Source of the DNA: a virus
Length of the DNA: 64,000 nucleotides
Reading direction: 5' to 3' (one strand)
IMG/VR virus record: IMGVR_UViG_3300010368_000009
Location: 37,447-101,446 of that record
Shown: positions 3,599 through 55,310 of the stretch, one piece after another
How the letters are laid out: each line of letters starts with the position of its first letter
Numbering within the stretch: position 1 is the first letter of the stretch
Made by a program: the position numbers and the translations under genes
Notes under the pieces: generated by a model
What the model was told of the DNA's origin: nothing
Seen by the model: only the letters and a program-made list of their open reading frames with translations
Database searches by the model: none

Positions 3599-3763
3599 AT
3601 GAACAGAAAAGTAGAATTATTCCCAACGATTCATATCACCGAAGAAACTGTAGCTGACTTGAAAGAAATATATGATTTCGATGTCACGGCACCCATTGTT
3701 ATTCCATGGGGTGATGGAGACACGATTACTATAACACTGAAAGTTGTCACTGAGAATACTTGA
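3599..3763 (+). CDS. small hypothetical protein (54 aa, not in ORF track)
   Basis: AGGA RBS; MNRKVELFPTIHITEE...VVTENT*. Confidence 0.5.
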   Translation: MNRKVELFPTIHITEETVADLKEIYDFDVTAPIVIPWGDGDTITITLKVVTENT

Positions 3764-7295: not shown

Positions 7296-8759
7296 ATGAC
7301 CATCATTGTAAACGTAAATGAAATCGAACGCATTCTTTCCAATCCGATTCTTATGTCAGATTCGTATAAGTTTTCACATTGGAAGCAATACCCACAAAAA
7401 TCTTTGTATGTGAATAGCTACATTGAATCTCGCGGCATGTGTACCGAATTGGTCAACAGTGGCCTCGACAACGAGTTGGTATTCTTTGGTATCCAAGGAT
7501 TTATCAAGCGTTACCTGTCTCGCCAAATCACACCCCAACATATTGATGAAGCTGAAAAATTCTGCAAGAATCATGGTGAACCATTCAATCGTCGTGGCTT
7601 TGAAATAATCGTGAATGATTACAACGGCTATTACCCTGTCAGTATTCAGGCTATTCCAGAAGGAACAGTCATCAGTGCACACAATGTTATGGTTCAAGTA
7701 ATCAATACTGACTCTCGGTTGTACTGGTTGACCTCGTTTCTGGAAACTGCATTGCTTCGCGCCGTGTGGTATCCAGTTTCCGTGGCTACCAAGAGCCGGG
7801 AAATCAAAAAGGTTATTGCCAAATATATGGATGATACGGTTGGCAATCGTGATGGTTTGGAATTCAAACTTCATGATTTCGGTGCCCGTGGTGTTTCTTC
7901 TCAAGAATCGGCCATGATTGGTGGCGCTGCCCATCTGGTGAACTTCATGGGAACTGATACCGTTGAAGCCGCTGTATGGCTCTCTGCACTGTATAGTGAG
8001 CCTATGGCCGGGTTCTCGGTGCCAGCCGCTGAGCATAGCACCACGACGACTTGGGGTGGACCGGAAGGCGAAGAAGCTAGTTTCTTGAATATGCTGGAAC
8101 AATTCCAAGGCAACTACCCGATTATCTCGGTGGTATCTGATAGCTATGACATTTACAATGCGATCACCAATCTTTGGGGTGGCACATTGAAGGAAGCTGT
8201 TATCGCTGCTTCAAAAATGGGTAGCAAGTTGGTCGTTCGTCCAGACAGTGGTGATCCAACAACGGTTCCTATCGATTGTGTTAAACTACTGATGGAAGTC
8301 TTTGGATACACGACTAATGATCTTGGGTATAAGGTATTGCCACCATATATCGGTGTGCTTCAGGGTGATGGTATCAACATCAATTCCATTCGTGCCATTC
8401 TTGAAAACATGAAGCGTGCTGGACTGTCGGTGGAAAACATTGTGTTCGGTATGGGCGGTGAGTTGCTTCAGGGTCATATGCGTGATGATCACAAATTCGC
8501 CATGAAGGCTTCTGAGATTCGGGTTGGTGATGAAGTTCGGGATGTGTTCAAGCAGCCGGTTACGGATGCTATGAAAATTTCAAAGAAGGGTCGATTGGCA
8601 CTTATTGAAACCAGCGGCGTTGGTTCTCGTGGCTACAACACATTGCGTGAATGTAATTTGGGCTACTTGGATAAAAACCTACTGCGGGAAATTTACCGTA
8701 ATGGTGAAATTTTAATCGATGACACCTTTACAACCATTCGGAAGCGTGCCAGTATCTGA
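7296..8759 (+). CDS. nadV: nicotinamide phosphoribosyltransferase (NAMPT/NadV)
   Basis: DSYKFSHWKQYP, LHDFGARG, AAEHS, SVVSDSYD, VRPDSGDP, QGDGI, FGMGG. Confidence 0.95.
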   Translation: MTIIVNVNEIERILSNPILMSDSYKFSHWKQYPQKSLYVNSYIESRGMCTELVNSGLDNELVFFGIQGFIKRYLSRQITPQHIDEAEKFCKNHGEPFNRRGFEIIVNDYNGYYPVSIQAIPEGTVISAHNVMVQVINTDSRLYWLTSFLETALLRAVWYPVSVATKSREIKKVIAKYMDDTVGNRDGLEFKLHDFGARGVSSQESAMIGGAAHLVNFMGTDTVEAAVWLSALYSEPMAGFSVPAAEHSTTTTWGGPEGEEASFLNMLEQFQGNYPIISVVSDSYDIYNAITNLWGGTLKEAVIAASKMGSKLVVRPDSGDPTTVPIDCVKLLMEVFGYTTNDLGYKVLPPYIGVLQGDGININSIRAILENMKRAGLSVENIVFGMGGELLQGHMRDDHKFAMKASEIRVGDEVRDVFKQPVTDAMKISKKGRLALIETSGVGSRGYNTLRECNLGYLDKNLLREIYRNGEILIDDTFTTIRKRASI

Positions 8760-9316: not shown

Positions 9317-10076
9317 TACTCATATTGCTTTCTGGGCCGGGTTTGAGTTTTTTATATTTTATTTTACTGATGAACATATCAACGGTTAGTTGTTGTTTTT
9401 GCTTCTCGTTACCATTGCCTTTCACTATAAGTGATGGTTCCATTTTAAATTTATTAATATATTGTTTGAACAGTTCGGAGATAGCTTTTCTTGCGAGCGT
9501 CATTATTTTGTCTTTTTCTATAACGGTTGGTTCAGAATAAGCTTGAACGATGATCATGCAATCGTTGTTTAACATAGTTGCGGCTAGGGCAGCAATCTCT
9601 GACGCAGCGGCATTCTTGTTGAGTGCTTTAGCAACACTCTGCATATTCCGCTGATTCATTTTTTCTATTTCGGCATCGGTCCATTTTATTAAGGCTTGAA
9701 CTCCCCTCTCTTTCGCGGCAGCTTCTCTTTCGTCATTCTTGGCAGAACGCTCTTTTTGTTCTAGATCGGCCACGTTCATATTATTACCATGGGCTAGTTT
9801 TTTCTTTTTCAAACTTTTAATGGCGGCTGAATTACCGGGGTATAGGTTTTCGGTTTTCTCGATAACTTCGCCGGTCGCATCAATTGTAAGAACGCGTTTT
9901 TCTTTAGTGATGCCCTTAATTACCCATCCGGCATCGGATGTCTGTACTTCGTAGATCGCAATGATGTTGTAACCAACGTCTAATAGGCGGGTGAATAGTG
10001 GAGTGTCATACATCATTGTTATGTTATCAATGCCGAAGAATTCTAACATTTCTCTTTGAGTGCTAAAGGTTTTCAT
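9303..10076 (-). CDS. hypothetical protein
   Basis: 257-aa ORF coupled to both neighbours. Confidence 0.7.
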   Translation of the reverse strand: MKTFSTQREMLEFFGIDNITMMYDTPLFTRLLDVGYNIIAIYEVQTSDAGWVIKGITKEKRVLTIDATGEVIEKTENLYPGNSAAIKSLKKKKLAHGNNMNVADLEQKERSAKNDEREAAAKERGVQALIKWTDAEIEKMNQRNMQSVAKALNKNAAASEIAALAATMLNNDCMIIVQAYSEPTVIEKDKIMTLARKAISELFKQYINKFKMEPSLIVKGNGNEKQKQQLTVDMFISKIKYKKLKPGPESNMSNEAQ

Positions 10077-18511: not shown

Positions 18512-18571
18512 ATGTAAACTTTGAAATATTTTTATTGACTCTATTGGTGATTTGCCTATAAGTAACATGAT

Positions 18572-18647
18572 GCGGATGTAGCTCAGTTGGCAGAGCGACA
18601 GATTTCCAATCTGTATGTCGTCGGTTCGAACCCGTCCATCCGCTCCA
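18572..18647 (+). tRNA. tRNA-Gly(TCC)
   Basis: ACAGA-TT TCC AA-TCTGT anticodon arm; U73 and CCA; promoter TTGACT-N16-TATAAGT upstream. Confidence 0.93.
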
Positions 18648-18653
18648 AGATTT

Positions 18654-18731
18654 GGTGCTGTAGCTCAGTTGGGAGAGCGCCACGCTCATAACGTGGGTCA
18701 GTCATCGGTTCGAGTCCGATCAGCACTACCA
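18654..18731 (+). tRNA. tRNA-CAT (elongator Met or Ile2)
   Basis: CCACG-CT CAT AA-CGTGG anticodon arm; A73 and CCA. Confidence 0.9.
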
Positions 18732-18904
18732 ATTCCATCGAAAGATGGAAACATTAACTTGCGGTTGCTACAGTTCCTCACCTGAAGAGATAGGCCGGTA
18801 GCATTAAATTAAATGGATGCGTTCAGCCGTATTTTATACTTGACTTATAGAAATTCAACCTGTATACAGATAATACAGAAACAACATACAAGGTAATAAA
18901 CATC

Positions 18905-19051
18905 ATGGCAAAGCACGCATCTGGTAATACTCATGTCGTTGGTGTACGTAAGCGCACCAGCATTGGTAACTCCTTCCGTTCGGGCGACAAGTCCAAGAAT
19001 GCGAAAAGCCGTAATGGTTCTCGCTTCACACGTGGTCAAGGTCGTCCGTGA
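18905..19051 (+). CDS. small basic protein ending RGQGRP (48 aa, not in ORF track)
   Basis: MAKHASGNTHVVGVRKRTSIGNSFRSGDKSKNAKSRNGSRFTRGQGRP; AAGG RBS; codons such as CGT, GGT and AAG suggest high expression. Confidence 0.75.
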   Translation: MAKHASGNTHVVGVRKRTSIGNSFRSGDKSKNAKSRNGSRFTRGQGRP

Positions 19052-19070
19052 ATAAAATGCAGTAACGGGG

Positions 19071-19099
19071 TTGACTTTATATAGATCGCCCTGTATAGT
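19071..19099 (+). promoter_or_regulatory. sigma70 promoter of the ncRNA region
   Basis: TTGACT-N17-TATAGT. Confidence 0.75.
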
Positions 19100-19107
19100 A
19101 TAAATCA

Positions 19108-19165
19108 TCGGCGGGGAGTTACTTCCTAGTAACTCCCCGCCGAAAGAATTGAATGCTCTTTGACA
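19108..19165 (+). promoter_or_regulatory. boxB-like hairpin plus boxA antitermination element
   Basis: Perfect 16-bp hairpin at 19108-19143, then TGCTCTTTGACA at 19154-19165, one mismatch from the rrn boxA TGCTCTTTAACA. Confidence 0.65.
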
Positions 19166-19174
19166 TTGTTGTGT

Positions 19175-19748
19175 GAAGCTTAGAACAGCTTCCGTTGGAG
19201 CATCGGGATAGATACTCCTTGTTTAACGAAAATAAACACTGTTGTGCTATTGGCATGGTATGATGGGTTCCGGTGTTTCATCGCAAGTTGTTCTAAAAGT
19301 TTGTTGACACAGATGCATGTGTTGTATTGGTGACCATAACCGGAGTACGGGGCGGAACTTTTACTGATCATTGCGGAATGCCTAGTTTAAATGGCGTGTG
19401 TCAAAGCCGGTGTCCCGTTTAAATCTGGGGATGTGACCGGCCTCGTCATCTTACAAAAGAGAGTCCAAACGTTTTCTAGAAACGACAAAAACTCAGCTCT
19501 GGTGGCCACAGAGAACCGGATATTCTCTTAATAGAGATAGCTTCGGGTGACGAGATATAGTTTTCGTGTACTGACTAGAGTGCACACAAGTTCCCTTCGG
19601 GGAAGGCATCTTATGGTGTCTTAGTGAATGGACTGACAAAAGAGAATATGGGCGGTAACCTGTAGGATCACAAATCAGTCGCCTTTACCGAGGAAAATCG
19701 GTTATTGTCATTCTGTTGGCATCACCACCAGAGTGGCTTACAGTCGGG
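19175..19748 (+). ncRNA. large structured ncRNA (or several adjacent RNAs), family unassigned
   Basis: No credible ORF; nested helices such as TTAGAACAGCTT/AAGTTGTTCTAA, TTGACACA/TGTGTCAA, CTCGTCATC/GGTGACGAG and a CUUCGG tetraloop. Confidence 0.6.
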
Positions 19749-19750
19749 AA

Positions 19751-19881
19751 TTAGTTTAGAGATGGGACGTAGCTCAATATGGTAGAGCTTCTTAATCCCG
19801 GCCACTTTGGAAAACGAACTGGTCCGGTAATGTCAAACGTTGTATGCGGGTTCGATTCCCGTCGCCTGTCATCTAAACTAG
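19751..19881 (+). ncRNA. tRNA-like RNA A (D and T arms, expanded anticodon region, no CCA)
   Basis: TAGCTCAATATGGTAGAGC; GCGGG-TTCGATT-CCCGT; closing TAGTTTAGA/TCTAAACTA. Confidence 0.7.
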
Positions 19882-19911
19882 CTGTTTCGTCCAAATGGAC
19901 AACAATAACTA

Positions 19912-19996
19912 TGCGTGCCGACTTAGACACATAGTCCGTAATACAAATGAGTGTCTGGATACGGTTGTAATGGGTTCGACTCCCGGTAGGCATGCA
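19912..19996 (+). ncRNA. tRNA-like RNA B (T-arm plus pseudoknot)
   Basis: TGCGTGCC/GGCATGCA; TGGG-TTCGACT-CCCG; crossing stems TAGACAC/GTGTCTG and CCGTA/TACGG. Confidence 0.55.
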
Positions 19997-20007
19997 AATG
20001 ATCTTAT

Positions 20008-20129
20008 AGTCGTTGGCTGTATTATCAGAAACAACACAAGGCCGTTGAGAATCCAGCGTGTTGTTTCTGGTAGGTGTCTAGATGGATATAGCTACCATCT
20101 AAGGAGTTCAAGTCTCTTAACGACTGCCA
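20008..20129 (+). ncRNA. tRNA-like RNA C with CCA end, long variable arm and no D-arm
   Basis: AGTCGTT/AACGACT-G-CCA; AGGAG-TTCAAGT-CTCTT; AGATGG/CCATCT; 14-bp central stem. Confidence 0.7.
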
Positions 20130-20131
20130 AT

Positions 20132-20256
20132 AATATCGAGTGAAGCACTGTCATAACATAGTTCGCGCAGAGGCTTATTATTTCGGGCTGGTATACTGAT
20201 GTGGAGTAGCGTAAGCTGACACCGATTAGTAATCAGTCAGGAATATACTCGGTATT
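20132..20256 (+). ncRNA. structured RNA D
   Basis: 11-bp closing stem AATATCGAGTG/TACTCGGTATT; internal ACTGAT/ATCAGT. Confidence 0.45.
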
Positions 20257-20281
20257 TTGTCAAGACAAATATACCTTATGA

Positions 20282-20371
20282 TTATGGGGTTGATCGATAA
20301 TGCTCAGTCTGGTAGAGCTTTCTTACAAAAACTAGGAAGGTCGTTGGTTCAAATCCAACTCGGTCGCATAA
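20282..20371 (+). ncRNA. tRNA-like RNA E (pseudo-tRNA, no CCA)
   Basis: GCTCAGTCTGGTAGAGC D-arm; GTTGG-TTCAAAT-CCAAC T-arm; TGATCGA/TCGGTCG; A-rich non-canonical anticodon loop. Confidence 0.7.
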
Positions 20372-20375
20372 ATAC

Positions 20376-20546
20376 TATCTATCAGTGCACGGGGTATGTG
20401 CACGCCTATATGTGAATCGCCCGTCCATCATCTGGTTACTGAGTAACAAGTAGGTAACAAATGGAGCAACGGGGGCAGTGAAGCAAGCGTTGAAAGTCGT
20501 CGAGGTTATGTAGACGATGGTTGGTTCGAATCCAATCTGATAGATA
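20376..20546 (+). ncRNA. tRNA-like RNA F (171 nt, large insert in place of the anticodon arm)
   Basis: TATCTATCAG/CTGATAGATA; TGCAC-GGGGTAT-GTGCA; TCGTC/GACGA; GTTGG-TTCGAAT-CCAAT. Confidence 0.65.
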
Positions 20547-20679
20547 TAATGGTGGCGTCATCTAGGAGCGGTGAAGTGTGCGTTCCGGGTGTTGCAGGCA
20601 TGCAAACCTATGCGGCAGTCCTTTTCCGAGGGCGAGTCGATTCTAGTCGTTTAACGAGCGACATGGCACCCCATCATTA
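20547..20679 (+). ncRNA. structured RNA G
   Basis: TAATGGTGG/CCATCATTA closing stem; CTAGGA/TTCTAG; GC-rich and non-coding. Confidence 0.45.
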
Positions 20680-20692
20680 AACGAGAAACATA

Positions 20693-21493
20693 ATGTTTTG
20701 GATAGTACAAGAAGATTTATATAACGAATACAATTATGATTCGTTTCTTGATTCGTTGAAAAGAATGAATATTGATCATGTATTGGTCAAGCCAATTCCA
20801 TTTACCAATACACTGGTTGATGAAGATCAAATTCATATCGATGATACCAAACCGATAATCGTATCAGGATCAATGGGATTAGTTCGTGTGGCTCGCCGTA
20901 GAGGTTGGAAGCCCGGATCATTCCTTGATGAAGATTTCGAATTCACTCAATGGCGTGATGGCTTCGGTAAAAAACATTGTATGAATGGATGGGGCAAGGT
21001 CAGTAAATTACGGGATGCATCTTTTTCCGGTAGCGATATATTCGTTCGTCCGACAGCTGATAATAAATCTTTCAACGGAACTATTATGAACCGGGAAGAG
21101 TTTATTTGCTGGCGTGACCATTATGCGGACATCGAACCAACCGATGAATTTCAATTACTCCATGCTGATACAGAAATTATGTTATGTCAGCCTAAAAACA
21201 TTTCGGCTGAATACAGATTCTTTATCGCTGGTGGCCAAATTCTAACCGGAAGCCTGTATTCTAGAAATAGACGCGTCCTTTATCAAGAATGTGTTGATGC
21301 AGGGCCGATAGCATTCATCAATGCAATGATCGCCATATATCAACCAGCGGAAGCATTCGTTCTAGATATAGCTTATATTCATGGTGAGTATAAAATAATT
21401 GAAGTTAATAATTTCAATTCATCTGGTTATTATGCTTGTGATGTTCAGAAAATCATTGACGGGGTTGAACAATTAACTTACAAGTATGAATAA
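20693..21493 (+). CDS. ATP-grasp domain protein (DUF4343/R2K-like)
   Basis: FVRPTADNKSFNG, EYRFFI, FVLDIA..YKIIEVNNFNSSGYY. Confidence 0.8.
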   Translation: MFWIVQEDLYNEYNYDSFLDSLKRMNIDHVLVKPIPFTNTLVDEDQIHIDDTKPIIVSGSMGLVRVARRRGWKPGSFLDEDFEFTQWRDGFGKKHCMNGWGKVSKLRDASFSGSDIFVRPTADNKSFNGTIMNREEFICWRDHYADIEPTDEFQLLHADTEIMLCQPKNISAEYRFFIAGGQILTGSLYSRNRRVLYQECVDAGPIAFINAMIAIYQPAEAFVLDIAYIHGEYKIIEVNNFNSSGYYACDVQKIIDGVEQLTYKYE

Positions 21494-21507
21494 AGAGGAT
21501 AACATTG

Positions 21508-21909
21508 ATGACAACAATGGTTTGGCTCGACGAAGAGAATAAAATAGCCTATACGGATTATGACCGTAATGATAGTCGTGTCGAATCGCGTGCGCAAGAT
21601 GTTCCAAGCGGAACCACACCGGGTGATAAACTTTATATTGTTTCGGTGGTTTATGAGTGGTATGATTCTGAAAGTCGTGAAGGTCCGTATTCCAAAGTTA
21701 TAGCGATGACGGTTGATGTTGTTGCTGTTGCAAAGTTGAAAATTGCTTTGAACGAATTATTGTTCGGTAGAAAACGGTATGACAATGATAAGGATCATAC
21801 GGTTGAGTCTAAGATCGAATTCGAAGGCTATATGATCAATTATGGTGAATTCTTGGGATGGGGAACATCCGCAAAAGAATTAAAACTTGAAGTTTACAAC
21901 GTGGTGTGA
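21508..21909 (+). CDS. hypothetical protein
   Basis: GAGG RBS; co-oriented with neighbours. Confidence 0.65.
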   Translation: MTTMVWLDEENKIAYTDYDRNDSRVESRAQDVPSGTTPGDKLYIVSVVYEWYDSESREGPYSKVIAMTVDVVAVAKLKIALNELLFGRKRYDNDKDHTVESKIEFEGYMINYGEFLGWGTSAKELKLEVYNVV

Positions 21910-21911
21910 TT

Positions 21912-22211
21912 ATGAAGCAAGAAATTTTAGATAAGTGGATTGCCAGACTTCGTGATCCATCAGCGAAGAAGGCCCGTGGGCAACTGTGGAATAAAAGCGG
22001 CATGTGCTGCTTGGGTCATCTTGGTGATGTCTGCGGTTTGTCTAAGTCTGATATGTCGAATGGAAACGGCGAGTCAATGCTACACCTTGATATGGCGTTT
22101 CTCCAAAAGGTTGAACTTCCGACTTCCCTATCAACGGAATTAGCTGATTTGAATGATACAAAAGCTGGTTTCCCCATCGATGAGATAATTAAACTAGTAC
22201 CGACCGATTGA
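21912..22211 (+). CDS. phage hypothetical protein
   Basis: KWIARLR...GQL...MCCLGHL...LADLND motif pattern. Confidence 0.65.
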   Translation: MKQEILDKWIARLRDPSAKKARGQLWNKSGMCCLGHLGDVCGLSKSDMSNGNGESMLHLDMAFLQKVELPTSLSTELADLNDTKAGFPIDEIIKLVPTD

Positions 22212-22219
22212 AAAATAGA

Positions 22220-22600
22220 ATTTGTACTAAACTGGACGCAGGTCCGATGAAACTGCGGCGGGAAGTAGCTACCTTAGCCGTATGGAGGATATGTACAAAT
22301 ACGGGTGCATTAGAGGAAGTTACTAATGCAGTAAAAAAGGAACGAAGCGTGATCCCTTGTTCCACCCACCATTATTAGTAGGCCGTCAGTCTAACCGTTT
22401 CTGAAGGTAAAAGCGAAGGTTATAAAGCATCCGCTGCCTACACGGTGGTTCTTGATAACAGTTATCAAGAATATGATGTGCCTTATCAATGGCTCTGGGG
22501 TACATCATTAAAAACCCATTAGCTGGCCCTTTCGAGGCATGCCATAGACAAATATCGAACGTTGTATAGTACACAGCGAAACCGCGATTGTCGGTCGGGG
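22220..22600 (+). ncRNA. cluster of small structured RNAs, one ending in ACCA
   Basis: ATTTGTAC/GTACAAAT; GGGT...ACCC-ACCA; GTAGGC/GCCTAC; ATGATGTGCC/GGTACATCAT. Confidence 0.45.
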
Positions 22601-22646
22601 GAGAGATTGATTGGCGAATAGGTCAATAATCTCTCCCCTTTTTTTA
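22597..22646 (+). terminator. intrinsic terminator
   Basis: GGGGAGAGATT...AATCTCTCCCC followed by a T-run. Confidence 0.7.
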
Positions 22647-27312: not shown

Positions 27313-30300
27313 ATGCATCGTATTGACAGTGAAGGCTCAATTAACAATCAATTCTCAGAGGGAAATCCGTCTCTTGGTGTTGAAGGAACAAAGGTTACTG
27401 CTGATTTCTTGAATGCTCTTCAAGAAGAATTAGCATATACAATTGAGTCTGCCGGGTTAACCTTGGAAAAAGGTAACCACTCCCAATTAGCAAATGCTAT
27501 TTTGACCCTCGTGGGTGGTGGTGGATCATTTCCAAATTTAGAAACACGTATTACTCAATTGAATTCTTCATATTTGTATGGTGCCAGAAATATATTCCGT
27601 CAAAATGACGAACCACTTGAAAATGTACAGGGTCCATTCTATGATAATGATATATGGATTGAAACAGATCAAAGCCCTGAACGAGTTTGGGTTTGGAATT
27701 CTATAACAGAAACATGGATTGATACTACTAGTGAAGCAAGCGCCCGTGGTATCTTATCCCAACAGAAGCTTCAGGCAATTTCTGACGGTGTTGTTCAGAT
27801 TTTCATACAAACCGATACACCAACTGGTGCTTCTGAGGGTGATCTTTGGTATAATGATCGTGATGACTTGCTATTCACCTATGATGCAGGTGTATGGTTT
27901 ACTGTATATGATGAGTTTTCGAAACGAGTTATCGTTGACGCGATCATCAGAGAAGCAGCGAACACTGCACAGGGTACAGCCGATTCAAAAATTCTCACCT
28001 ACTATCAAACATCGGCACCGGTCGGATTAACCGCACAGAACGATGGTGATATCTGGTTCGATACCAGTGACTCCAATAAAGTATATCGTTATGCACATCC
28101 TACGTGGATCGCCATTTCTGATCTTCGCATTCAAACCGCCCTAGATTATATTTTCCTTCAAGGAGCAATCGCTGACGGAACTATATTCGTTTATTTTTCT
28201 GCGGATGAACCAACCCAAGCTAACCAAGCTGCACTATCTCCACCAAAACAAGCACCATCCGAGGGTGATGTATGGGTTGATATTACCGATGATGGCGGAA
28301 GTCCAAGAAACGATGTTTACTTGTTCAATAATAATGTTTGGGTTCAACAGACTGATCCAGATTTCATTCGACTGCTTCTAAGTTTTGCGAGTGCTCGTGC
28401 AATTTCTGACGGTGCTGTAACCATTTACTTCAGTCCAACTGCACCAGATGACACATTCATTCCGGCACCGGCCTATGGTGATATTTGGTTTGATACATCT
28501 ACTGTTTCTATACCTGATGTGAATGCCGCTGACCCTGCTACCGCTGCTCAAATCAACGTTACCAAATGGGAACAATATAGATATGACGGAACATCATGGG
28601 TAGTGATTGCTGACTTCAAAGTTAAAATCATTGAAGCCAATCTGAAGAGTGAACAATTCGCACGAACCGCAGAAGACACTGCAATCTCTGGTGAAATCAC
28701 CACGGCGGTAACTCGTATTGGTGAAAATGAAGCAACCGTCCAGCAATCATTAGTATCAATCAACGGTATCGCTGGTGCTTATGGTGTTAGAACGAACGTT
28801 AATAATAAAGTGGTTGGTTTTGGTTTCATCACTGATTATGAACGAGAAATTGAATTCACCAACACCGGTTCGTTGGATTTTAATCCGGGTGATGAAGTCT
28901 TCCTTGGCGTTGACTATGCAAATAAAACCTATGCAGCTGTAATTGTATCGGTTGATAACGTTAATGAAACAATGCGAGTCATTTCGGAATCAGGTACATT
29001 TGCTACTGGTGTCACTTTGGCTTCTCGGTATAGATTGCTGGCGAATGCAACTATCGATGCAGGTACATTAAATCCGACGCCGGGTGATTCTGAATTCGAA
29101 ATCATTGTTGATAAGTTTAAAATCACTGATGGAACATCTTCGTTAACCCCATTCAGTATCAGTGGTGGCGTCGTATATGTTGGTGCTCTCGATACGAGTG
29201 TGCCACAAGTACAATACATTGGTGAGTTTGCATCTGATCCAGCAACGACTTATCCAATCAACTCAATTTACAAAAACACCACCAATGGTAACACGTATGT
29301 TTTGGAATATATCACCGGCACATCCGGTCCAAAACAGTGGGCGATCTTCCTAGAACGCGGTACAAACGCACGCTCGTTGGTCATCACCGCTAATGTTCCG
29401 GGTTATATGTTTGATAGCAATGCGGCATCATCTCCAACAAACCCTACTATAACCTTCAATGTACAATATCAGGGCCAAGCATCAGCAATCACAAGTACAG
29501 ATATTGTTGTTACTGATAAAGATGATAATGTGATTGCAGCAACACTTACGAGTACGGTTACGGATGATACCGTGATTTTTGATGCCGGTGGAACAACTCA
29601 TCGTGGATCATTCAAATTTGATATTGCTTATACAGAATTCGCAGCCAATGAATTTCCAATCACCATCACGGTTGATGATGGAACTCTATCTGACACCATG
29701 TTCGTTCCGAGAATTATTGGATCAACCGCCAAACTGATATCACTTAATCCAGATTCATCGGTCTTTCTTTTCGAGGATGATGTAGCAACTGTTCCAGAAA
29801 ATGCGTCTATCCATTTCCGCATCCAGCACCAATCATTGAGTACAGCACCGACAACATCGGAACTTACAATCGTTGATGATGCGGCAACATCATTCTCTTC
29901 TACCAACTTTACATCAGCTGGTAGTGGTTCGGGTGTATCATCGTTTGAATTATTATGGTCTACCGTTTCAGCCGCAGTTTTCCCAATCACGGTCACGATT
30001 GATGACGAAAGTATCAATGATGTCATCGTGGTTAGAAAACTAATCGGTGGTGTTGATGCCGTTGCAGGTTTCTTAACCAATGAATCTCATCTGGTGCCAG
30101 CTGAAGAAGATGGAACCATTGTGGTGGGTGGCCTTGATGATGCCATTGGTACATTTGATGTGTATCGCGGTATCACTAAGCGTAATACAGATACAGCATA
30201 TACTGTATTATCAACAATAGGTTGTTCAGCCACGATTGATGATACTGCTGGTGGAACTGCTGGTAATTATGCTATCACGGCGATGGCCGCCAATAAAGCA

Positions 30301-33300
30301 AGAGCTGTATTCCAAGCCGTATATGATTCGGTCACCATCACAAAAGTAATGAGCCTGACCAAATCATTAGCAGGGGTGGGTGCAAAAGCGCTTTATCTTT
30401 TCTCAGATGCGCAAACCTTTGAATTCACTGGGGATAATCAAGCGAAAGATGGTGGTGCCGTCATTACCTTGTCCACGATTCGTACTGGTGTTTCGGGAAT
30501 TACTTGGACAGCGGTAAACGAGCTTGATGATCCGGTCGCTTTGTCTGGAACTGGTGACGATACTAGAACCTTACCGATTGGTAACTTTGCTGCATCTGAA
30601 TATGTAACAGTCACGGTTGCTGTAACAATTGATACTGTTGAATATAGTGATAAGATCAGAATTGTTAGACTGGTTGATGGATCGAGTACAATTAATGTAG
30701 TTCTTTCAAATGAATCGCATACTTTTTTTGCTGATGAGAATGGTGTCATCAGTGGTGGAGATTACGATAGTGGAAACTCTTTAATATCGGTGTATCGCGG
30801 CACTGAAGTAATTTTATATCAGGGTGCGGCTGGTAATAACAAATTTAGATTTGGTACGATTACTGCTTCTGCTGGTATCACTATTGATGGTGGCGAAACT
30901 GCACCAACCGTTGGTATTTCCGCCATGACCAATTTGTTTGGTTATATTGATGTACCTGTCATCTATAGAAATAATAATGGTGCCGACACAACATATACTA
31001 AACGTATTTCATATGCTAAATCACGCGAAGGTGAATTGGGAAGAAACCTTCAACTGTATGGTACTGGACAGGTGTTTAGATTTGATGGCGATAATATTGC
31101 AATCAATCCTTCTGACACAATTACGATTACCGCCTTCCGTCAACATCTTGATACAGACCCTGTATTCACTGCTCTAAACGATAGTGCTCAATCGGTAACC
31201 TTGACTGGCACTGGTGATTCAAGAGCATTGAGTATTACTGATTTTGGTACATCCGAATTCGTTAAGGTCACCTGTGTTGCAACATATACTGTCAATGCGG
31301 TTGAAGTAGAAATCACTGATACCTTCTCCATCTATAGAATCAAAGGTGCAATCGCTGGTCTAGTTGTTCTTATGACCAATGAAAACCATACCTTCTTTGC
31401 TGGCCCAGACGGAACAATTGATGCTGGACTGTTCGATGATGGTAATTGTACTGTTCGTGTGTTCCGTGGTTCTGAAGAAATCTCATATGATGTTGGTGGC
31501 GGTCTTAATACTTTCAGTTTCGGAACCATTGTTGCCAGCAATGTTATCAAAGATGTAACAGAGACTGCACCCGAAATTGGTGTTAGTTCAATGTCTGGTG
31601 ATGCTGGTTCTCTTACCGTTCCGGTAATCTATAAAGACCCTACCGGTAATGATGAAACCATAACCCGTGTCATCTCTTATTCCAAGGCCAAGGTTGGTGC
31701 ACAGGCACGTGGGTTGCGCATGTCTGCCACATCACAAATCTTTAGATTTGATGGTGAAGGTGTCGCTCTTAATGGTGCTGATGAAATTACCCTAACCACT
31801 CAGAGAACACTCTTGGGTGACAATCCGACATGGACCGCTATCAATCAGGCTGGTGGTGCCGTGGCTCTGTCATCAGTGGATGCAGATACCAAAAAAGTAA
31901 CGATTGCCAACTTTGGTTCATCTGAATGGGTTAGAGTTTCGGCATCGATCACAACTAGTATCGATGGCAACAGTGTCACGTATCGTGATGAGATAACCAT
32001 TGTAAGATTGAAACGTGGTACTGATGCAATTACTGCATTGATTGAAAATGAATCACACATCTTCCCATCAGATGAAAATGGTGTTGTTTCTGATTACACC
32101 AGTGGTGATACAATAGTTCGTGTATTCTTGGGTGATACAGAAAAAACATATGGTACTGGTAATGAAGAATTTCGGTTTGGCACTATAACTCCAACGAATG
32201 TAACCAATGCAAATTTAACTGCTCCTGCGATTGGTGTTTCTGCCATGACAGAAGATACTGGTCGTTTGAGATTACCGATTATCTATCGCGATGTGAATGC
32301 TGTTGATAGAACTGTATATAAAGAAATCACATATGTTAAGTCTCGTGCTGGTGTGGCCGCTCGTAATCTAAGATTATTTGCAACCAAATTGGTTTTTGAA
32401 TTTGATAGCGAAGACTCACCGGTCAATGGAAGTGACAGTATTGTATTCACAGCTGTTGCCACCAATGTATCCAATCTTACATTCGCTGCCGAAGATCAAA
32501 ATGAAGTAGCTGTTGCATTAACCGGATCAGGTAACCAACGCACTCTTGCAATAACAGCATTTGATGATGCACAAAGTGTCAGTGTGACCGCGAGTGGAAC
32601 ATCCATGATCGGTGGTGTTTCGGTCGGCTTCAGTGATACAATCACTATTGTGAGACTACGTGAAGGTGCTGGTGGTGTACAGGTTTCATTAACTAATGAA
32701 TCACATACGTTCTATGCAGATGAAGAAAATGCAGTAATCGGAACAGAGTATGCTGGTGGTAATTCAATAATCAAAGTATATGCTGGCACCACCGAAGTAA
32801 ATTATAATGCTAGTGTTGTTCCGGGTACATGGCGTTTAGGTACGGTAACCCCAACCGATGTCACACGCAACGGAGCATTGGCGTTACCAATTATTGGTAT
32901 CTCGGATTTTGTTAAAGCTAGCAACACCGGTATATTATTATTCGAAGTAATTTATACTGACCTTAATAGTGTTGATAGAACTATACAACGTGCCATCACT
33001 TATTCCAAGTCTAAAGCTGGAACCGATGCTCGTGCCCTGAGATTGATAGCCTCTTCTCAATTATTCAACTTCAATACATCCGGTCAACCTGTTGATAATG
33101 CTGATGAAATCACTCTAAACGCGGTTCGTCAATTTATTGATGGTACAGCGGCATGGACTGCTGTGGATGAGGATAGTAATAATCTTTCATTGACTTCTGG
33201 TGCTAATGGTGACGAGAAGATTTTAAGTATTGCCAACTTTGGTTCTGCTAATCAGGCGAATATTTCTGTTAGTGCTGTGGATTCGTTCACGGGTGAAACT

Positions 33301-36300
33301 TTAGTTGATACCTTAACCATTTATAGACTTAATCAGGGTTCCGAGGGTAAAGACGGAGTAACTGTCTTTATTGGAAATGATAATCATTCATTCCCTGCGG
33401 ACGAGGCTGGGTTGGTGGATGATTATTCTACCGCTAATACGACTGTAGTTGTTTATAGTGGTTCTGTTGCAATCAACTATTCGGCAACGAAGGTGAACAA
33501 CACTTTCCGTTTCGGTACAATGACACCAACCAATGTGACTCGTAATGTTGGCTTGGTTGCCCCTATCATTGGTATTTCGGCAATGTCTGATACTGATGGT
33601 TCGCTTACTGTTCCGGTTATCTTTACGGATAATCAAGGATCAGATTTGACCTTCACCAAGATAATTTCTTATACGAAATCACTTGCAGGAACGAATGTAA
33701 GAAATATTAGACTTCGTGCAACATCTTTTACGTTTGAGTTCGACCAGTTCGGTGACCCGATTGATACCAATCAAATCATAACCTTCTCGTCTCTTAGAAT
33801 AAATGTTCCATCAGCAACGTGGACGGCTGTTGATCAAAATGATGATGCTGTTGCATTCACATCATCACCAGATGCTGACACACGAACATTAGACATTGAT
33901 GACATCGGTTCTGCAACCGAGATAACCGTTAGTGTATCATCTACCTATAACGCTATTGATTACATTGACACTATTCGAGTAGTTAGATTGGATCAAGCTC
34001 GTGATTCTATTACCATCGTTGGAACAAATGAAAACCATAGTTTCTTTGCTGATGAAGGTGGTGTTATTTTAGTAGGTGATTATGCAAGTGGTGACTGTAC
34101 TTTCTCAGTTTACCATGGTACTAGACTAATAACATATCAATCAACTGCGGCTGATGATCGTTGGCGCTTCGGTGTCATAACGGCCAACAGTGTTACTAAA
34201 AATGCGGCTTTAACTGGTGGTGCAACTGGTATTACGGCTATGTCGGCAAATGTCGGCAACTTAACAGTACCAATTGTTTATAGAGATAAAAATGGACAAG
34301 ATACTACCTACACAAAAATTATATCTTACACAAAATCAAGAAACGGGCGCGATGCGAGATGGGTACAACTCGCGGCATCGGAACAAGTATTCAGATTTAC
34401 AGGCGACGACTTACCGCTTGATAATGTTCAAACCGTTTCAATCAATGTAGCTGTAAATCTTGTTGATACTGGTGATGTAGTTGTTACTGCTAAAGATGAA
34501 CTAGGCGGTTCGATAACACTGGGTGGTTCTGGTGTTGCGAGAACTATGACGATTTCACAGTTCGGTAATTCCGAATATGCAGTCGTTGAAGCTACAGCAT
34601 CGATAACGGTTCAGGGTCAAGCCCAAGTTATCAAAGACACCATCACGATTGGTCGTGTGCGGAACGGTTCGGGGGTTGTTCAAGCTCTCCTTACCAATGA
34701 ATCACATTCATTCGCAGCAGATGAAGATGGTGTTGTTTCATCGTATGGCGGTGGCGATACAGATGTTCGTGTCTTCCGTGGTTCCGAAGAAATAAACTAT
34801 CAAGCCACTGCTGCTAATAATAAATTCCGGTTTGGAACTTATATAGTTTCGAATGTTACTAGTAATGGTGGTTTGACCAAACCAGCGGTCGGCATTTCTG
34901 CCATGTCTAGCGATTTTGGCACACTGACCATTCCAATTATCTATCGTGATCCGAATGGTGATGATGTAACAATCAATAAAGTTGTTTCATATTCCAAGTC
35001 GCGTGCTGGTAATAAAGCTCGTTTGATGCGACTTTATGGAACAGGGCAAGTATTCAAATTCAATCAGGATGGTAATCCTGTAAATGGTTCTGATACTATT
35101 ACCCTAAATGCCATTTCTACTAATCTCGGCGTTCCAACGTGGACAGCTGTAGATGAGAATTCAGTCAACCGAAACACTTTGCTATTAACTGGTGCGACCG
35201 ATTATCAGAAAATATTAAACATCGCCAATTTCATACCATATGAAACCATTACAGTGACTGCATCAGCGACTCATGACGCTGTAAATTATTCTGATCAATT
35301 CACTGTTTATAAGGTAGATGAAGGTGCCAGTAATATTGTTGTGGCTCTGTCGAACGAAGCTCATATATTTGGTGCTGATGAGGAAGGGGTTGTTTCTGAT
35401 TATGACAGTGGCGATTCGGTAATCCGTGTCTTCCGTGGTGCTACTGAAGTTTCATATAATGCCGGTGGTGCAGATGATAGTTTCTTGGTTAATAATTTTG
35501 TTGCGACCGACACAACACGCGATGGTGCTCTAGCCTTACCAAGTGTCGGTATTTCTGCCATGTCAGAAGATGCTGGTACGCTTTCATTCGACGTTGTTTA
35601 TACTGATTCAGTGGGTTCAACCGGACCAACCCAAACTAAGACTATTTCATATTCCAAAGCTCGTGCTGGTGTTAATGCTAGAGCAATTCGTTTGTTCTCT
35701 TCATCAATGCAATTCAACTTTGATGCTGGTGACAGTCCACTCAACGGCAGTGATTCAATTGCGTTCGATGCTATCAAGTCCTTCTTACCGGGAACGGTCA
35801 CATGGACTGCTAAAGATCAAACAGCCGGTAATATTACATTAACCGGTACTGGTAATAGTCGTGCTTTATCTGTCACCAATTTTGGTTCATCTACATATGT
35901 TGATGTCAAAGCGAGTGTATCGGATACCGTTAATACGATAACCACTGTTTATGAAGATCAAATCCGCGTTGTGAGGGTCCGTGACGGTGCTTCTGGTTCA
36001 ATTGGTGCCGATGCCCTACAAGTGTTCCTGACGAACCCACAGACGGCCTTTGCGTTGGATGGTGATGGCAAAATGGTTGAGAGTTACCTAATAGGTAACA
36101 CCGATGTTGAAGTTTATCTTGGAACAACCGCTGTATCTTATTCGGGAACCACCACAGCCAACACGTGGAGATATGGAACCTTTACGGAAACCAATGTCAA
36201 AAAATATCAATCGTCTGGTACGGTAGGTATTAGTGACATGTTCGCTGATCAGGGTTCTTTGTCTGTTCAAATTATATATAGAACAACCGATGCTCAAGAT

Positions 36301-39300
36301 ATAGTAATCAATAGAACAATCAATTATTCCAAAATTAGATCGGGTGTATCTCAATCTGATTGGTATCTGATTCCAACTAAACAAACGTTTGCGTTCGATG
36401 GTGATGATAATGCTAAAAATGGTTCTGATACGATTACCGCTAATCTTACTCGTTCGGCATCAATCTCGGAACCGGTTTGGACAACCTCGCCTTCTATCAC
36501 ATTATCCGCTGGCACTTCGGTTGATCAAAAAATAATCACTATTGGTAACTTTGGTGCCAATGAGATTGTTGATGTCAAGGCTACATCGAGTGAAGGCAAG
36601 CCGGTATATTCAAACAACTACAATTATGATTTCGATAGTAGTATTTTCGGATGGCAAATTTCTGGTGCCGTTACTCAGACAATTAATAATGGCTGGGCAA
36701 TCACGGTTGATGATTTGGTTAGCACAAATCAATATGTATACAATGATTTACCAGCAGCTGATTATTTTGCGGGTGCTGATTATAGATACATGGCAGTTGA
36801 GATTGAAGTTATTTCATCTAATGGAACCGGTCAGAAGCGTATCTATTGGAGTACAGCGGGTCATAGTTATGCTAGTTCCAACTATACAACAGCTAATATA
36901 CAAGATGCTGACCTATCTATTGTTGGCACTCATACATTAATCTTTGATCTACATAATCCAACCGTTGGTTCCTCAACAGACTTTAGTGGTAATACTATTC
37001 GTGGTATCCGTTTTGATCCATATGGTGCTGATGATGCATCATTCGTTATTAAGCGCATCGGTCTTGCAACAGCCATTACTTATTTTGAAGATAATTTCAC
37101 CATCTCTCGTATCATCGATGGTACAAATAATATTCAGGTCATCGGTTCTAATGAATCACACACATACAAAGCTGATGAAGATGGCGTAATCACGGTTGCG
37201 ATGAATACCGGTAACTGCGTATATACATTGTATCGTGGTTCGAATGTCGTTTCATATTCTGGCACCACGACCAACAACACATGGCGTTGGGGAACCTTCA
37301 CAACCACGTCTGGAACGATCACCGCATCTTATTCCGGCTCGACTGTGACGCCAACTGTACTGGGTGCTGATACAAATACTTTAGACGTTCAGCTTATCTA
37401 TCGTGATCCGAATGGTGTTGATACCACGTTCACTCGTACTCTTTCTTGGACCAAAGCAAGACAGGGTGTTCTCGCAAGAACATTAAAGATCACTGCTTCT
37501 TCGCTCGTGTTTGAATTTGATCAAGACGCGAATGCCAAAAACGGTGCTGATTATATTGATTTCGATGTCAATGTATTGAATCTATCATCGCCTTATACTT
37601 GGACCGCTGTAGATCAGAGTGGATCATCATTAACATTAACCACGGTAGATTCAAATACATCAAGATTAACAATTGCTAACTTCGGTACATCCACTCGCGC
37701 AACGATTACTGCTTCTCGCACGGAGTCGGTTGATGGTTCAAATAAAACTTATACTGATAGTGTAACTGTTGGTCGCATTCAAGATGCTTCTAATAATGTG
37801 GTTGTCATTCCAACTAATGAATCACACACATTCTTCGCTAATGAAGACGGTTATGTTACCGATTATTCTGGTGGAGTCGGCACCTTTGTTGTTTACCGTG
37901 GCTTAAGCTCAATCAGTTATTCAGCAACGCCAACCAATAATAAATGGCGTTATGGCACTATTGTTCCTATTGGTATTTCACATAGTGTTGTTGGTGCCGA
38001 TATCATAACTTCAAACATGACGCTTAGTGAAGCTCGTATCGATGTTCCTGTGATTTACCGGGATGCCAATGGTCAAGATTATACATACAATCAACGGTTA
38101 TCATTTGCTAAAGCAATACAAGGTTTTATCGGTGCTGGTGGTATTTCTATTTTCCAAACCAATCCAACACATGTCTTCACCACTGATCAGGCTGGTGCTC
38201 TTCTACCGGGTATTGCATATTCTGATGGTGATTCAACATTCTCGGTATATGCTGGTGATGAAGAATTAACGCACAGCACTTTCCCTAAGCTGAATTCATT
38301 CACCATTACTAATACTACTCCAAGTAATGTGACCCAGAATGGTGGATTGTCTTTACCAACTATTGGTATATCTGCACTATCTGCCGATTCTGGAAACATC
38401 ACATCTACTATTGTTGCATATCAAGCATCAACCCGCGTTTATAATTTTGGTTTCGAAAAAGGTATTGATGGAACCCAGACAACAACGGGTCCAATTGGGT
38501 GGCTTTACTCTGGTTCGACCAATAACGTTGGATATGTAGCCACCGTTGATTCCAATAGTAATTTCAACTCTACCTTATCATGGGGATCAACAACTAGCAC
38601 TTCACCATTTGGGTCATGTGGTTGGTATAGAGTTGGTAAACGCTTTGGTGTTCAGTCGGTTCCTAGCTTCATCACCATGACCGCGAAGGTTCGTCCTTCT
38701 TCTATGCTTGTACCAGCATCTGTTTCGGTATCAGGTACACAGGTTTATCTAGCTGAAGATGATTGTTATGCTGAAGTCATCTTCCGAGATATAAACAATG
38801 CACAGATTGGATCAACGGTTTATTCAAAATCATTATCACATCAATTGTTTGATCAGGGTGAAGGCGGTCAGTCTTATAATGGTGTGTGGACAACCTTCAC
38901 TTACACCAACTCGTCCGTTCCAGTGGGCACCGAAGCGATTGAAATATATCTTGTTTCGTCTGAAGCTTCTAATTCTGTTCAAACAAATGGGTATCGTGGT
39001 TCCAATTCGGGTGTTCTATTTGATGATTTCCAATTTGCATCAGATGCGGCGATCTATGACATCACTCTTGAACGCGAAATTACACAAACCACTTTATATA
39101 CTCGTTCGAAAACTGGTCAGAATTCAGTACTCTATTACATTCAACCAACCACTGGTACTGCTATTAAGAATGGTGTCGGTTCGTTAACTGGTGAATTACA
39201 TAAAGTTGATGGACCATCTGATGTCAAGGTTACGAGTGGTAATGTCAAACTATATCAAGACGGCGTTTTAATAACCAGTCCAACAAATTATGCTTATAGT

Positions 39301-48559: not shown

Positions 48560-48590
48560 AACGGCCCTCGGTTAATAACCGAGGGCCGTT
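48560..48590. terminator. bidirectional terminator hairpin
   Basis: AACGGCCCTCGGTT-AAT-AACCGAGGGCCGTT between convergent genes. Confidence 0.7.
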
Positions 48591-54497: not shown

Positions 54498-55310
54498 ATG
54501 GTAAATAAAAATAAAAACAAATCGGCCTATTCATTGGTTGAAGAAGTTGCTGCAATTATCAAATTCCAATTTATGGAAGATGAAGAATCTAAAAGCATTC
54601 TATTTGCTCAATATTCTAATTTGGTTCATATGCATGCTCATAGGATTTATGGCAAATCAATGAAATCATCTATCACCTTTAATGATCTTGTATCTGAAGG
54701 GTTCATCGGTCTATTGGTCGCCATGAAAAAACATAATGTATTTCGTTGTGACAAAATGTACCCAACCGCTAATTTCTATATTATCGAAAATATCAACTGT
54801 TACGTGATGGACGCCATGTCTATGACCCGTAATCTTTCTACAAATTCAAATGGTAGAAAGATGTTCCATAGATATGGAAAAACCCTAAATCAGTTAGGAT
54901 TTGAACCGCCCCTAAATATTCCACAAATTGAGGCGATGTCAGTTGAATTGTCTGTACCGGTGCGTGATATAGAGTTTATGGAATCCGTTTATGCAAACAA
55001 ATCAGTGTCTACCACTGATGATAGTATTATGAATCTCAGATCAGATCATGATCATGAAACCGTTGAGGATGATCTTGATAGTGTTCGCCTTATGTCACTA
55101 ATCAAAAACAAATACTTGCATAGATTGTCCGAAAAAGAACAAGACATTGCTAAACGCCGAATTCTCACAGATGATGCTGAGAACGCAAAGAAGATTGCTG
55201 ATGAATATGGAGTATCAACTTCATCCATCTACCAATTGGAAAAAAGAGTGAGCCAAAAACTTATATCAATGGCTCAAGAAGAAATGAAAATTAATATCAA
55301 GGCGGCATAG
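54498..55310 (+). CDS. sigma70-family sigma factor, RpoH-like and divergent
   Basis: Region 2 DLVSEGFIGLLVAMKK, RpoH-box-like GRKMFHRY, region 4 LSEKEQDIAKRR...KIADEYGVSTSSIYQLEKR. Confidence 0.78.
   Translation: MVNKNKNKSAYSLVEEVAAIIKFQFMEDEESKSILFAQYSNLVHMHAHRIYGKSMKSSITFNDLVSEGFIGLLVAMKKHNVFRCDKMYPTANFYIIENINCYVMDAMSMTRNLSTNSNGRKMFHRYGKTLNQLGFEPPLNIPQIEAMSVELSVPVRDIEFMESVYANKSVSTTDDSIMNLRSDHDHETVEDDLDSVRLMSLIKNKYLHRLSEKEQDIAKRRILTDDAENAKKIADEYGVSTSSIYQLEKRVSQKLISMAQEEMKINIKAA

Follow-up and report, generated by a model that had tools for sequence, protein, structure and literature searches.

Introduction

In bacterial rRNA operons, boxA is reported to be required, and by itself enough, for the rrn antitermination complex to form (PMC13753749). 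The same paper quotes the E. coli boxA consensus and describes B. subtilis rrn operons, in which a 5' hairpin is followed directly by boxA (PMC13753749). In E. coli rrnH, the order of elements is the P2 promoter (TTGACT...TAATAT), a hairpin, TGCTCTTTAACAA at approximately +36, and TGTGTGGG 15 nt later. BoxA leaders also exist in CRISPR arrays and in suhB, as cited in PMC13753749 and PMC5725501. A literature search returned rrn, lambda nut, suhB and CRISPR as the known contexts of boxA (PMC5725501, PMC13753749 and others) and found no paper linking boxA to phage tRNA or non-coding RNA arrays or to GOLLD, an absence that is no proof of being unpublished.

The DNA analyzed here, hereafter the window, is a 64-kb stretch (64,000 nucleotides) of an IMG/VR viral contig of 101 kb, with an estimated completeness of 30%, and its source is a phage of the 330-kb class. 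An earlier note on the same letters had described an rRNA-operon-style antitermination leader in front of a phage non-coding region. Our analysis indicates that positions 19071-19171 are quite probably a promoter-proximal, rrn-type, N-independent antitermination leader.

Results

The source phage and its relatives

By baseplate protein, Agrobacterium phage Atu_ph07 and Sinorhizobium phage Phosso were the nearest cultured relatives (35% amino-acid identity), with RaK2-like jumbo phages next. Conservation was compared with one relative, L002, which belongs to a complete phage genome of 335 kb bounded by terminal repeats and has a gene order different from that of the window. Megablast of the region against deposited phages gave no match, and distant blastn against the same phages matched solely two ordinary tRNAs. 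No related locus was found with the upstream 442-aa protein, and a metagenome scan with the R2K protein found one locus, 35% identical, that was without boxA. A 32-nt query around boxA returned no cultured phage with the element, the best matches of this insensitive short-query BLAST being in coding regions. GCTCTTTRACA was absent throughout the four cultured distant relatives Atu_ph07, Phosso, RaK2 and GAP32, and the boxA device is therefore not a lineage-wide trait. One open reading frame of 4522 aa spans 27313-40881 (+ strand) of the window.

Organization of the leader

The leader and the gene next to it are made up of the following features.

18905-19051, + strand: gene of a very basic protein of 48 aa (pI 12), preceded by its own promoter at 18840-18868
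19071..19099, + strand: sigma-70-type promoter, TTGACT, 17-nt spacer, TATAGT
19108..19143, + strand: perfect hairpin of 16 bp, loop TCCT (UCCU), approximately +2 to +38 of the predicted transcript
19154..19165, + strand: boxA core TGCTCTTTGACA, 11/12 match to E. coli rrnH boxA TGCTCTTTAACA
19154..19171, + strand: extended box TGCTCTTTGACATTGTTG, boxA plus a 6-nt tail, 18/18 in L002
19166..19175, + strand: GT-rich stretch TTGTTGTGTG, possibly boxC-like, in which TGTGTG starts 4 nt after the 12-mer
L002 6868-7011: the relative's copy of the 48-aa basic protein gene

The sigma-70 promoter, the perfect GC-rich hairpin of 16 bp between promoter and boxA, and the boxA sequence TGCTCTTTGACA at 19154-19165 were all present as the earlier note had claimed. 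The -35 element TTGACT occupies 19071-19076 and the -10 element TATAGT 19094-19099; judged from the -10 position, transcription would start near 19106. The predicted promoter lies 54 nt upstream of boxA, which places the box in a sense-strand 5' leader position. A generic promoter scan gave 31 sites compared to 26.6 expected, and the promoter match alone is not beyond chance. The pattern TTGAC-N17-19-TATA was enriched in the window, with 9 sites compared to 2.85 expected, several of which directly precede tRNA genes or ORFs. The counterpart promoter in L002 is TTGACT-17-TATATA, with 18/29 positions identical and an identical -35 block, TTGACTTT. Short tRNA units with similar promoters at 459, 18535 and 44227 were all without boxA, and boxA in the window was restricted to the long untranslated unit.

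Three similar promoters are found in tandem within 560 nt at 18535-19099, preceding in turn a tRNA-Gly/tRNA-Met pair, the small basic ORF and the boxA leader. Since no terminator lies between them, read-through transcripts from upstream would also carry the hairpin and boxA. In L002, approximately 400 nt separate the small basic gene from two tandem promoters near 7405 and 7495.

The 48-aa basic protein gene adjoins the leader, upstream, in both phages, and its product has conserved KRTSIGNS and RGQG motifs with no Pfam or PHROG match. In the protein collection the family has at least 71 clusters, and at least 132 viral loci encode a member, many of these loci being on small contigs. As a candidate N-like partner of the leader this protein was rejected, the family being widespread in viral contigs without a nearby same-strand boxA and missing from other boxA-bearing loci.

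Conservation of boxA and of the extended 18-mer

The boxA 12-mer had a single exact site in the 64-kb window, where allowing one mismatch added no other, and the full 101-kb contig likewise contained one copy, compared to a chance expectation of approximately 0.008 exact matches in 64 kb on both strands. In the complete 335-kb relative, its 11-mer core has a single exact site, which lies in the matching leader. There the 18-mer, an identical TGCTCTTTGACATTGTTG, lies at 7538-7555 of L002, 17 nt after the TTGACT-17-TATATA promoter. In the alignment of the two phages, identity was 18/18 over the 18-mer, 9/54 between the -10 element and boxA, 34/100 after boxA and 12/41 upstream of the -35 element. 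The predicted centroid fold leaves 19144-19163 unpaired, so that boxA would be accessible. The GT-rich stretch after the box is a weak candidate for a boxC-like element, because TGTGTG is not kept in L002, where the corresponding letters are TTGTTGGGAA. No Rfam family was found for the leader.

Match to alphaproteobacterial rrn leaders

Measured against E. coli, whose boxA consensus is UGCUCUUUAACA, the window boxA matches that of rrnH in 11/12 positions and differs by A -> G at one. The comparison with the host rrn boxA that the earlier note had proposed was run as an exact scan with the 18-mer in 185,579 species genomes, and gave an 18/18 match to alphaproteobacterial 16S leaders. At least 120 matching stretches were found, and those listed came almost exclusively from Alphaproteobacteria, among them Microvirga, several Rhodobacteraceae, Jiella, Devosia, Maricaulis, Kordiimonas, Nisaea, Sphingomonadales and Rhodospirillales. 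In 52 of the 120 matches listed, the 5' end of the 16S gene was 157-363 nt downstream of the 18-mer. In another 51, the sequence ended less than 400 nt from the 18-mer, mostly at a contig end, as expected at collapsed rRNA operons, and the sequence downstream of the 18-mer in these stretches was the same as in the leader matches. The remaining 17 of the 120 listed lay elsewhere, which is approximately the number estimated for chance.

The 12-mer is the rrn boxA in the sampled Alphaproteobacteria, and the 6-nt tail varies among them (TTGTGG, TTGATG, ATGTGA, CTGTAA). The exact 18-mer was present in 1/301 sampled alphaproteobacterial genomes, many of which are small MAGs, probably without assembled rrn operons; with this count and the variable tail, the exact 18-mer was rejected as a class-wide signature. 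Because the tail varies, the host inference is based on a subset of Alphaproteobacteria, and it is to the rrn leader box of such a subset that the phage box is identical in sequence. Taken together, the boxA identity and the baseplate-protein relatives point with moderate confidence to an alphaproteobacterial host, the Agrobacterium and Sinorhizobium relatives agreeing with the host suggested by boxA.

Recurrence of the promoter and boxA in other viral contigs

Eleven further viral contigs contain the exact 18-mer, and seven of them place it approximately 7-35 nt after a sigma-70-type promoter, so that the layout of promoter then boxA is common to the window, L002 and 7 other phage contigs. 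Same-strand tRNA genes were found downstream in 6/7 of these promoter-proximal contigs, as follows.

L012: 24 tRNAs and GOLLD over approximately 11 kb, headed by promoter and 18-mer
L012 12005-12474, - strand: GOLLD (RF02032, 190 bits), within the same-strand tRNA array
L004: 9 tRNAs and GOLLD, headed by promoter and 18-mer
L004 1177-1643, - strand: GOLLD (RF02032, 187 bits), within the same-strand tRNA array
L009: group I intron adjoining the leader, and 15 tRNAs
L007, L010 and L014: shorter tRNA runs after the 18-mer
L006: the seventh promoter-proximal 18-mer contig, with approximately 590 nt of downstream sequence

Because GOLLD is embedded in arrays that begin with a promoter and the identical 18-nt boxA, it is probably made as part of a boxA-led polycistronic RNA. 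Two further observations concern these contigs. The group I intron of L009 (RF00028, 56 bits) is at 9806-9999 (- strand), at the start of the 15-tRNA array, and L006 carries at 3599-3674 (- strand) a tRNA found by ARAGORN with a CTA anticodon (amber suppressor, labelled Pyl).

A gapped scan was then made for TTGAC-N17-19-TATA followed after 8-38 nt by GCTCTTTGACA, with the 11-mer reversed as control. The promoter and boxA were found together in at least 120 viral contigs compared to 5 for the reversed control, an enrichment of at least 24-fold. Same-strand tRNA genes lay within 1.5 kb downstream in 49 of the 120 contigs listed (median 6, maximum 19) and in none of the 5 controls, and an opposite-strand tRNA was found in one of the 120 listed and again in 0/5 controls. 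The A-type E. coli box GCTCTTTAACA was found in at least 118 viral contigs, and 37 of those listed have arrays of up to 25 tRNAs. The other 71 of the 120 listed leaders (L136-L251) were without a downstream tRNA; in these contigs an ORF mostly begins a median of 40 nt after boxA, and many of the leaders have a short hairpin abutting boxA, e.g. L138, L155 and L186. Such tRNA-less leaders may serve protein-coding early operons in phages that infect other hosts, as antitermination leaders of the N-independent or N-type kind, and some of them may be ordinary lambdoid nut sites.

These counts bear on the explanation that the boxA of the window is a chance match, or a functionless scrap of a host rrn leader captured recently. 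Twelve bases are short, and the promoter consensus scan by itself did not exceed chance. Such an origin is nevertheless scarcely credible when approximately 0.008 exact matches are expected per window, when 18/18 positions are kept in a relative whose flanks are 17-34% identical, and when the same element recurs in unrelated phage contigs at least 24-fold more often than its reversed control. Recent capture is further opposed by the extent of the match, since only 18 nt are common with the bacterial leaders and the flanks are unrelated.

The position of boxA in these loci is also relevant to the proposal that it is a decoy, in which an abundant leader RNA titrates NusB/NusE off host rrn and aids host shut-off, and boxA does not serve the phage transcript itself. 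We regard this as improbable, because in many phages boxA consistently heads long untranslated arrays and is not carried on a free-standing short transcript, and because one copy per genome is a weak sink compared to several host rrn operons. Overexpressed boxA RNA does compete for NusB in E. coli, and a strong promoter joined to a host-identical 18-mer would make an effective competitor; decoy and cis roles can also coexist. The reading as an rrn-type boxA behind a host-type promoter, at the head of a long untranslated structured RNA, is strongly supported by the comparative evidence.

The hairpin between promoter and boxA

The arms TCGGCGGGGAGTTACT (19108-19123) and AGTAACTCCCCGCCGA (19128-19143) form 16/16 pairs, 10 of them G-C, with a folding energy of approximately -31 kcal/mol, and this is the longest perfect hairpin of the 64-kb window. 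A second copy of the hairpin arm was absent from both phage genomes, and it is not a repeated element. In the alignment with L002 the hairpin is missing as a clean insertion/deletion. Across 57 distinct alphaproteobacterial rrn leaders, the usual distance from the end of a hairpin to boxA is 0-4 nt, compared to 10 nt in the window, and a stable hairpin precedes boxA in approximately one third of 91 phage leaders compared to 8% of shuffles.

Since hairpins are usual before boxA in such leaders, the hairpin of the window occupies a boxB-like place. The order of boxB then boxA claimed in the earlier note holds insofar as a hairpin precedes boxA, but its identity as boxB is not backed by conservation, L002 being without it; with the hairpin absent from the relative and 10 nt away from boxA, the name boxB is plausible and unproven. 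E. coli rrn can dispense with boxB. The hairpin does not belong to the conserved core of the device by sequence, and it may be an accessory element, for which a boxB-like role and a 5'-end stabilizing role are equally likely.

An account in which the hairpin is not boxB has about an even chance of being correct. It would then be a 5'-terminal stabilizer against 5'-end-dependent decay, or a weak terminator or insulator against read-through from the upstream tRNA and small-ORF units or against antisense transcription. The hairpin starts 1-2 nt after the predicted start of transcription and, at -31 kcal/mol and 16 bp, is far more stable than the short boxA-adjacent hairpins of bacterial and phage leaders, to which its distance of 10 nt from boxA (usually 0-4 nt) and its loss from the relative may be added. 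On the minus strand, TGATTTAT comes directly after it and a scan marked it as weakly terminator-like, and a second perfect hairpin of 15 bp at 48560-48590, between convergent genes, occupies a terminator-like place. On the plus strand, however, the hairpin is followed by AAAGAAUUGAA, with no U-run, in contrast to the U7 of the unit's real terminator; no minus-strand genes read into it within 3.5 kb; and a 5' hairpin directly before boxA is the layout of B. subtilis rrn (PMC13753749) and of E. coli rrnH. A canonical plus-strand intrinsic terminator was rejected for want of a U-run directly after the stem. Neither side of the hairpin at 48560-48590 shows a clear U-run, and this hairpin may be an unusual bidirectional terminator.

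The probable transcription unit downstream of boxA

Downstream of the leader, the following features were found.

19176..20680, + strand: non-coding RNA array of tRNA-like modules, ORF-poor and structured, the cargo of the leader
20693-21493, + strand: ORF of an R2K ATP-grasp protein
21505-21909 and 21906-22211, + strand: second and third ORFs
22220..22590, + strand: second cluster, of small structured RNAs, within the same unit
22598..22645, + strand: canonical intrinsic terminator, a long GC-rich stem and U7 (-29 kcal/mol, z -4.3)

Approximately 1.5 kb without a credible ORF follow boxA in the window, and approximately 2.8 kb without ORFs follow it in L002. The array RNAs of the window are not GOLLD, and most of them fail tRNA models. 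In L002, 7012-10300 is a stretch of approximately 3.3 kb without + strand ORFs of 60 aa or more, in which no Rfam family was found.

No + strand promoter was found at 20560-20692 ahead of the R2K gene, by a narrow pattern or by the generic scan, and no canonical terminator, defined as a strong stem with a U-run, was found between array and ORFs or elsewhere before 22598; the generic scan gave weak promoter-like and terminator-like sites elsewhere within 19100-22500. With the promoter missing ahead of the R2K ORF and the terminator missing before 22598, the three ORFs are probably co-transcribed with the array, and the unit is probably approximately 3.5 kb long, comprising the RNA array, the three ORFs and the second RNA cluster and ending at 22598-22645. 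The transcript length of approximately 1.5 kb in the earlier note would be superseded by this estimate.

RNA-library contigs from 3 metatranscriptome runs of 3 studies matched 19332-19504, 19601-19849 and 20388-20662 at 98-100% identity. Parts of the array occur in RNA libraries, in which carry-over of DNA is possible. The cover of these contigs excludes the leader at 19100-19330 and the flanking coding regions, a gap that carries no weight as evidence, and such contigs cannot show RNA ends.

The array was composed of 25.8% G and 19.6% C, and 1/76 windows along it was C-rich (C/G of at least 1.3). rRNA has the same skew of G over C. With regard to the proposed protection of the transcript from Rho, the composition of this G-rich array does not directly point to strong Rho loading sites, and a role in folding or elongation may therefore matter as much.

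The same untranslated stretch bears on a negative role for boxA like that in the suhB 5' UTR, in which Nus binding would repress or attenuate the unit and tie its output to the level of free Nus factors. For suhB it is established that Nus factors repress through boxA (PMC5725501). In the window, however, the first credible ORF is 1.5 kb away, the intervening 1.5 kb being non-coding, and the context resembles the long untranslated transcripts of rrn and CRISPR type. Repression of the suhB type reportedly works by blocking translation of the adjacent ORF. We find such a role very hard to reconcile with the locus and prefer an antitermination leader for the RNA array.

Discussion

Under the antitermination reading, host RNA polymerase with the housekeeping sigma factor would start near 19106, and the nascent RNA would first form the very stable 5' hairpin and then expose a single-stranded boxA, UGCUCUUUGACA followed by UUGUUG, at approximately +49. 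By analogy with rrn operons, boxA would be bound by host NusB-NusE(S10), and the joining of NusA, NusG and SuhB would turn the polymerase into a termination-resistant, fast and RNA-chaperoning complex. This complex would transcribe the tRNA-like array, probably the three ORFs and the second RNA cluster, and stop at 22598-22645. Nus-factor binding and resistance to Rho and intrinsic termination are what the analogy predicts, and a chaperone effect on the array RNAs would be expected on the same grounds.

Pfam models found no gene for NusB, S10, NusG or the RNA polymerase beta subunit in the contig or the complete relative, although divergent phage RNA polymerases could escape such models. As phage-encoded Nus and RNA polymerase genes were not found, host factors and host polymerase are implied. 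Of the elements in the claim that the phage uses the host complex, the rrn-type boxA, the promoter and the untranslated RNA have comparative support; the boxB is not backed by conservation, and the unit is probably longer than 1.5 kb. Elsewhere in the window, the ORF at 54498-55310 (+ strand), which has a counterpart in the relative, gave a weak, below-cutoff Sigma70_r2 hit of 22.7 bits, and its product may be a phage late sigma factor.

If correct, this reading would explain, concretely and testably, how kilobases of untranslated structured RNA can be transcribed by phages even though Rho normally aborts such RNAs in their hosts, the RNAs concerned being tRNA arrays, tRNA-like decoys and GOLLD-type RNAs. 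It would extend Nus/boxA biology from rrn, lambdoid nut, CRISPR and suhB to virulent-type and giant phages, and it favors purposeful synthesis of the downstream tRNA-like RNAs from one primary transcript. With the chaperone activity of the complex, large ornate phage RNAs may be able to fold co-transcriptionally. For an uncultured freshwater phage of the 330-kb class, the box provides a clue to the host, Alphaproteobacteria; the extended box (boxA plus tail) may, if the reading is true, track the host clade and could serve in host prediction. The promoter with boxA would also be a simple sequence handle for non-coding RNA operons in viral metagenomes.

More broadly, the rrn-type promoter-proximal boxA could be a general, undescribed phage device that places the host antitermination and chaperone complex on long untranslated RNA operons, that is, on tRNA, tRNA-like and GOLLD-containing arrays in many lineages. 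We give equal weight to this being so and to its not being so.

Compared to the known systems, the locus is closest in layout to the rrn leaders (boxB-boxA-boxC; NusB/NusE/NusA/NusG/SuhB/S4, rrnTAC). It has the same order of promoter, hairpin, boxA and GT-rich stretch, boxA stands ahead of a long, untranslated, highly structured and G-rich RNA, and a dedicated phage protein is apparently not needed. It differs from rrn operons in that the cargo is an array of tRNA-like RNAs with ORFs instead of rRNA, in that the hairpin is much longer and farther from boxA, and in that the hairpin and the boxC-like stretch are not kept in L002. Moreover, rrn operons have a spacer boxA, whereas a second boxA was not found in the phage unit.

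With lambdoid nut sites the locus would have in common a phage boxA in the nascent RNA near an early promoter that recruits host Nus factors. The cargo in the window differs in being non-coding RNA, and while the lambda boxA is of a weakened type, the window boxA is of the full rrn consensus type. No N-like protein was identified for the window leader, and a lambda-type nut site was rejected on the order of hairpin then boxA and on the loop UCCU, which is not a GNRA-like pentaloop. The boxA of suhB differs in being repressive and translation-dependent. The boxA of CRISPR arrays is similar in being promoter-proximal and in protecting a long, untranslated, repetitive RNA array, whereas the array of the window consists of tRNA-like RNAs in a virulent-type giant phage. 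Finally, in the phage tRNA arrays and GOLLD loci the same 18-mer heads the arrays, and the cargo of the window is likewise an array of tRNA-derived RNA.
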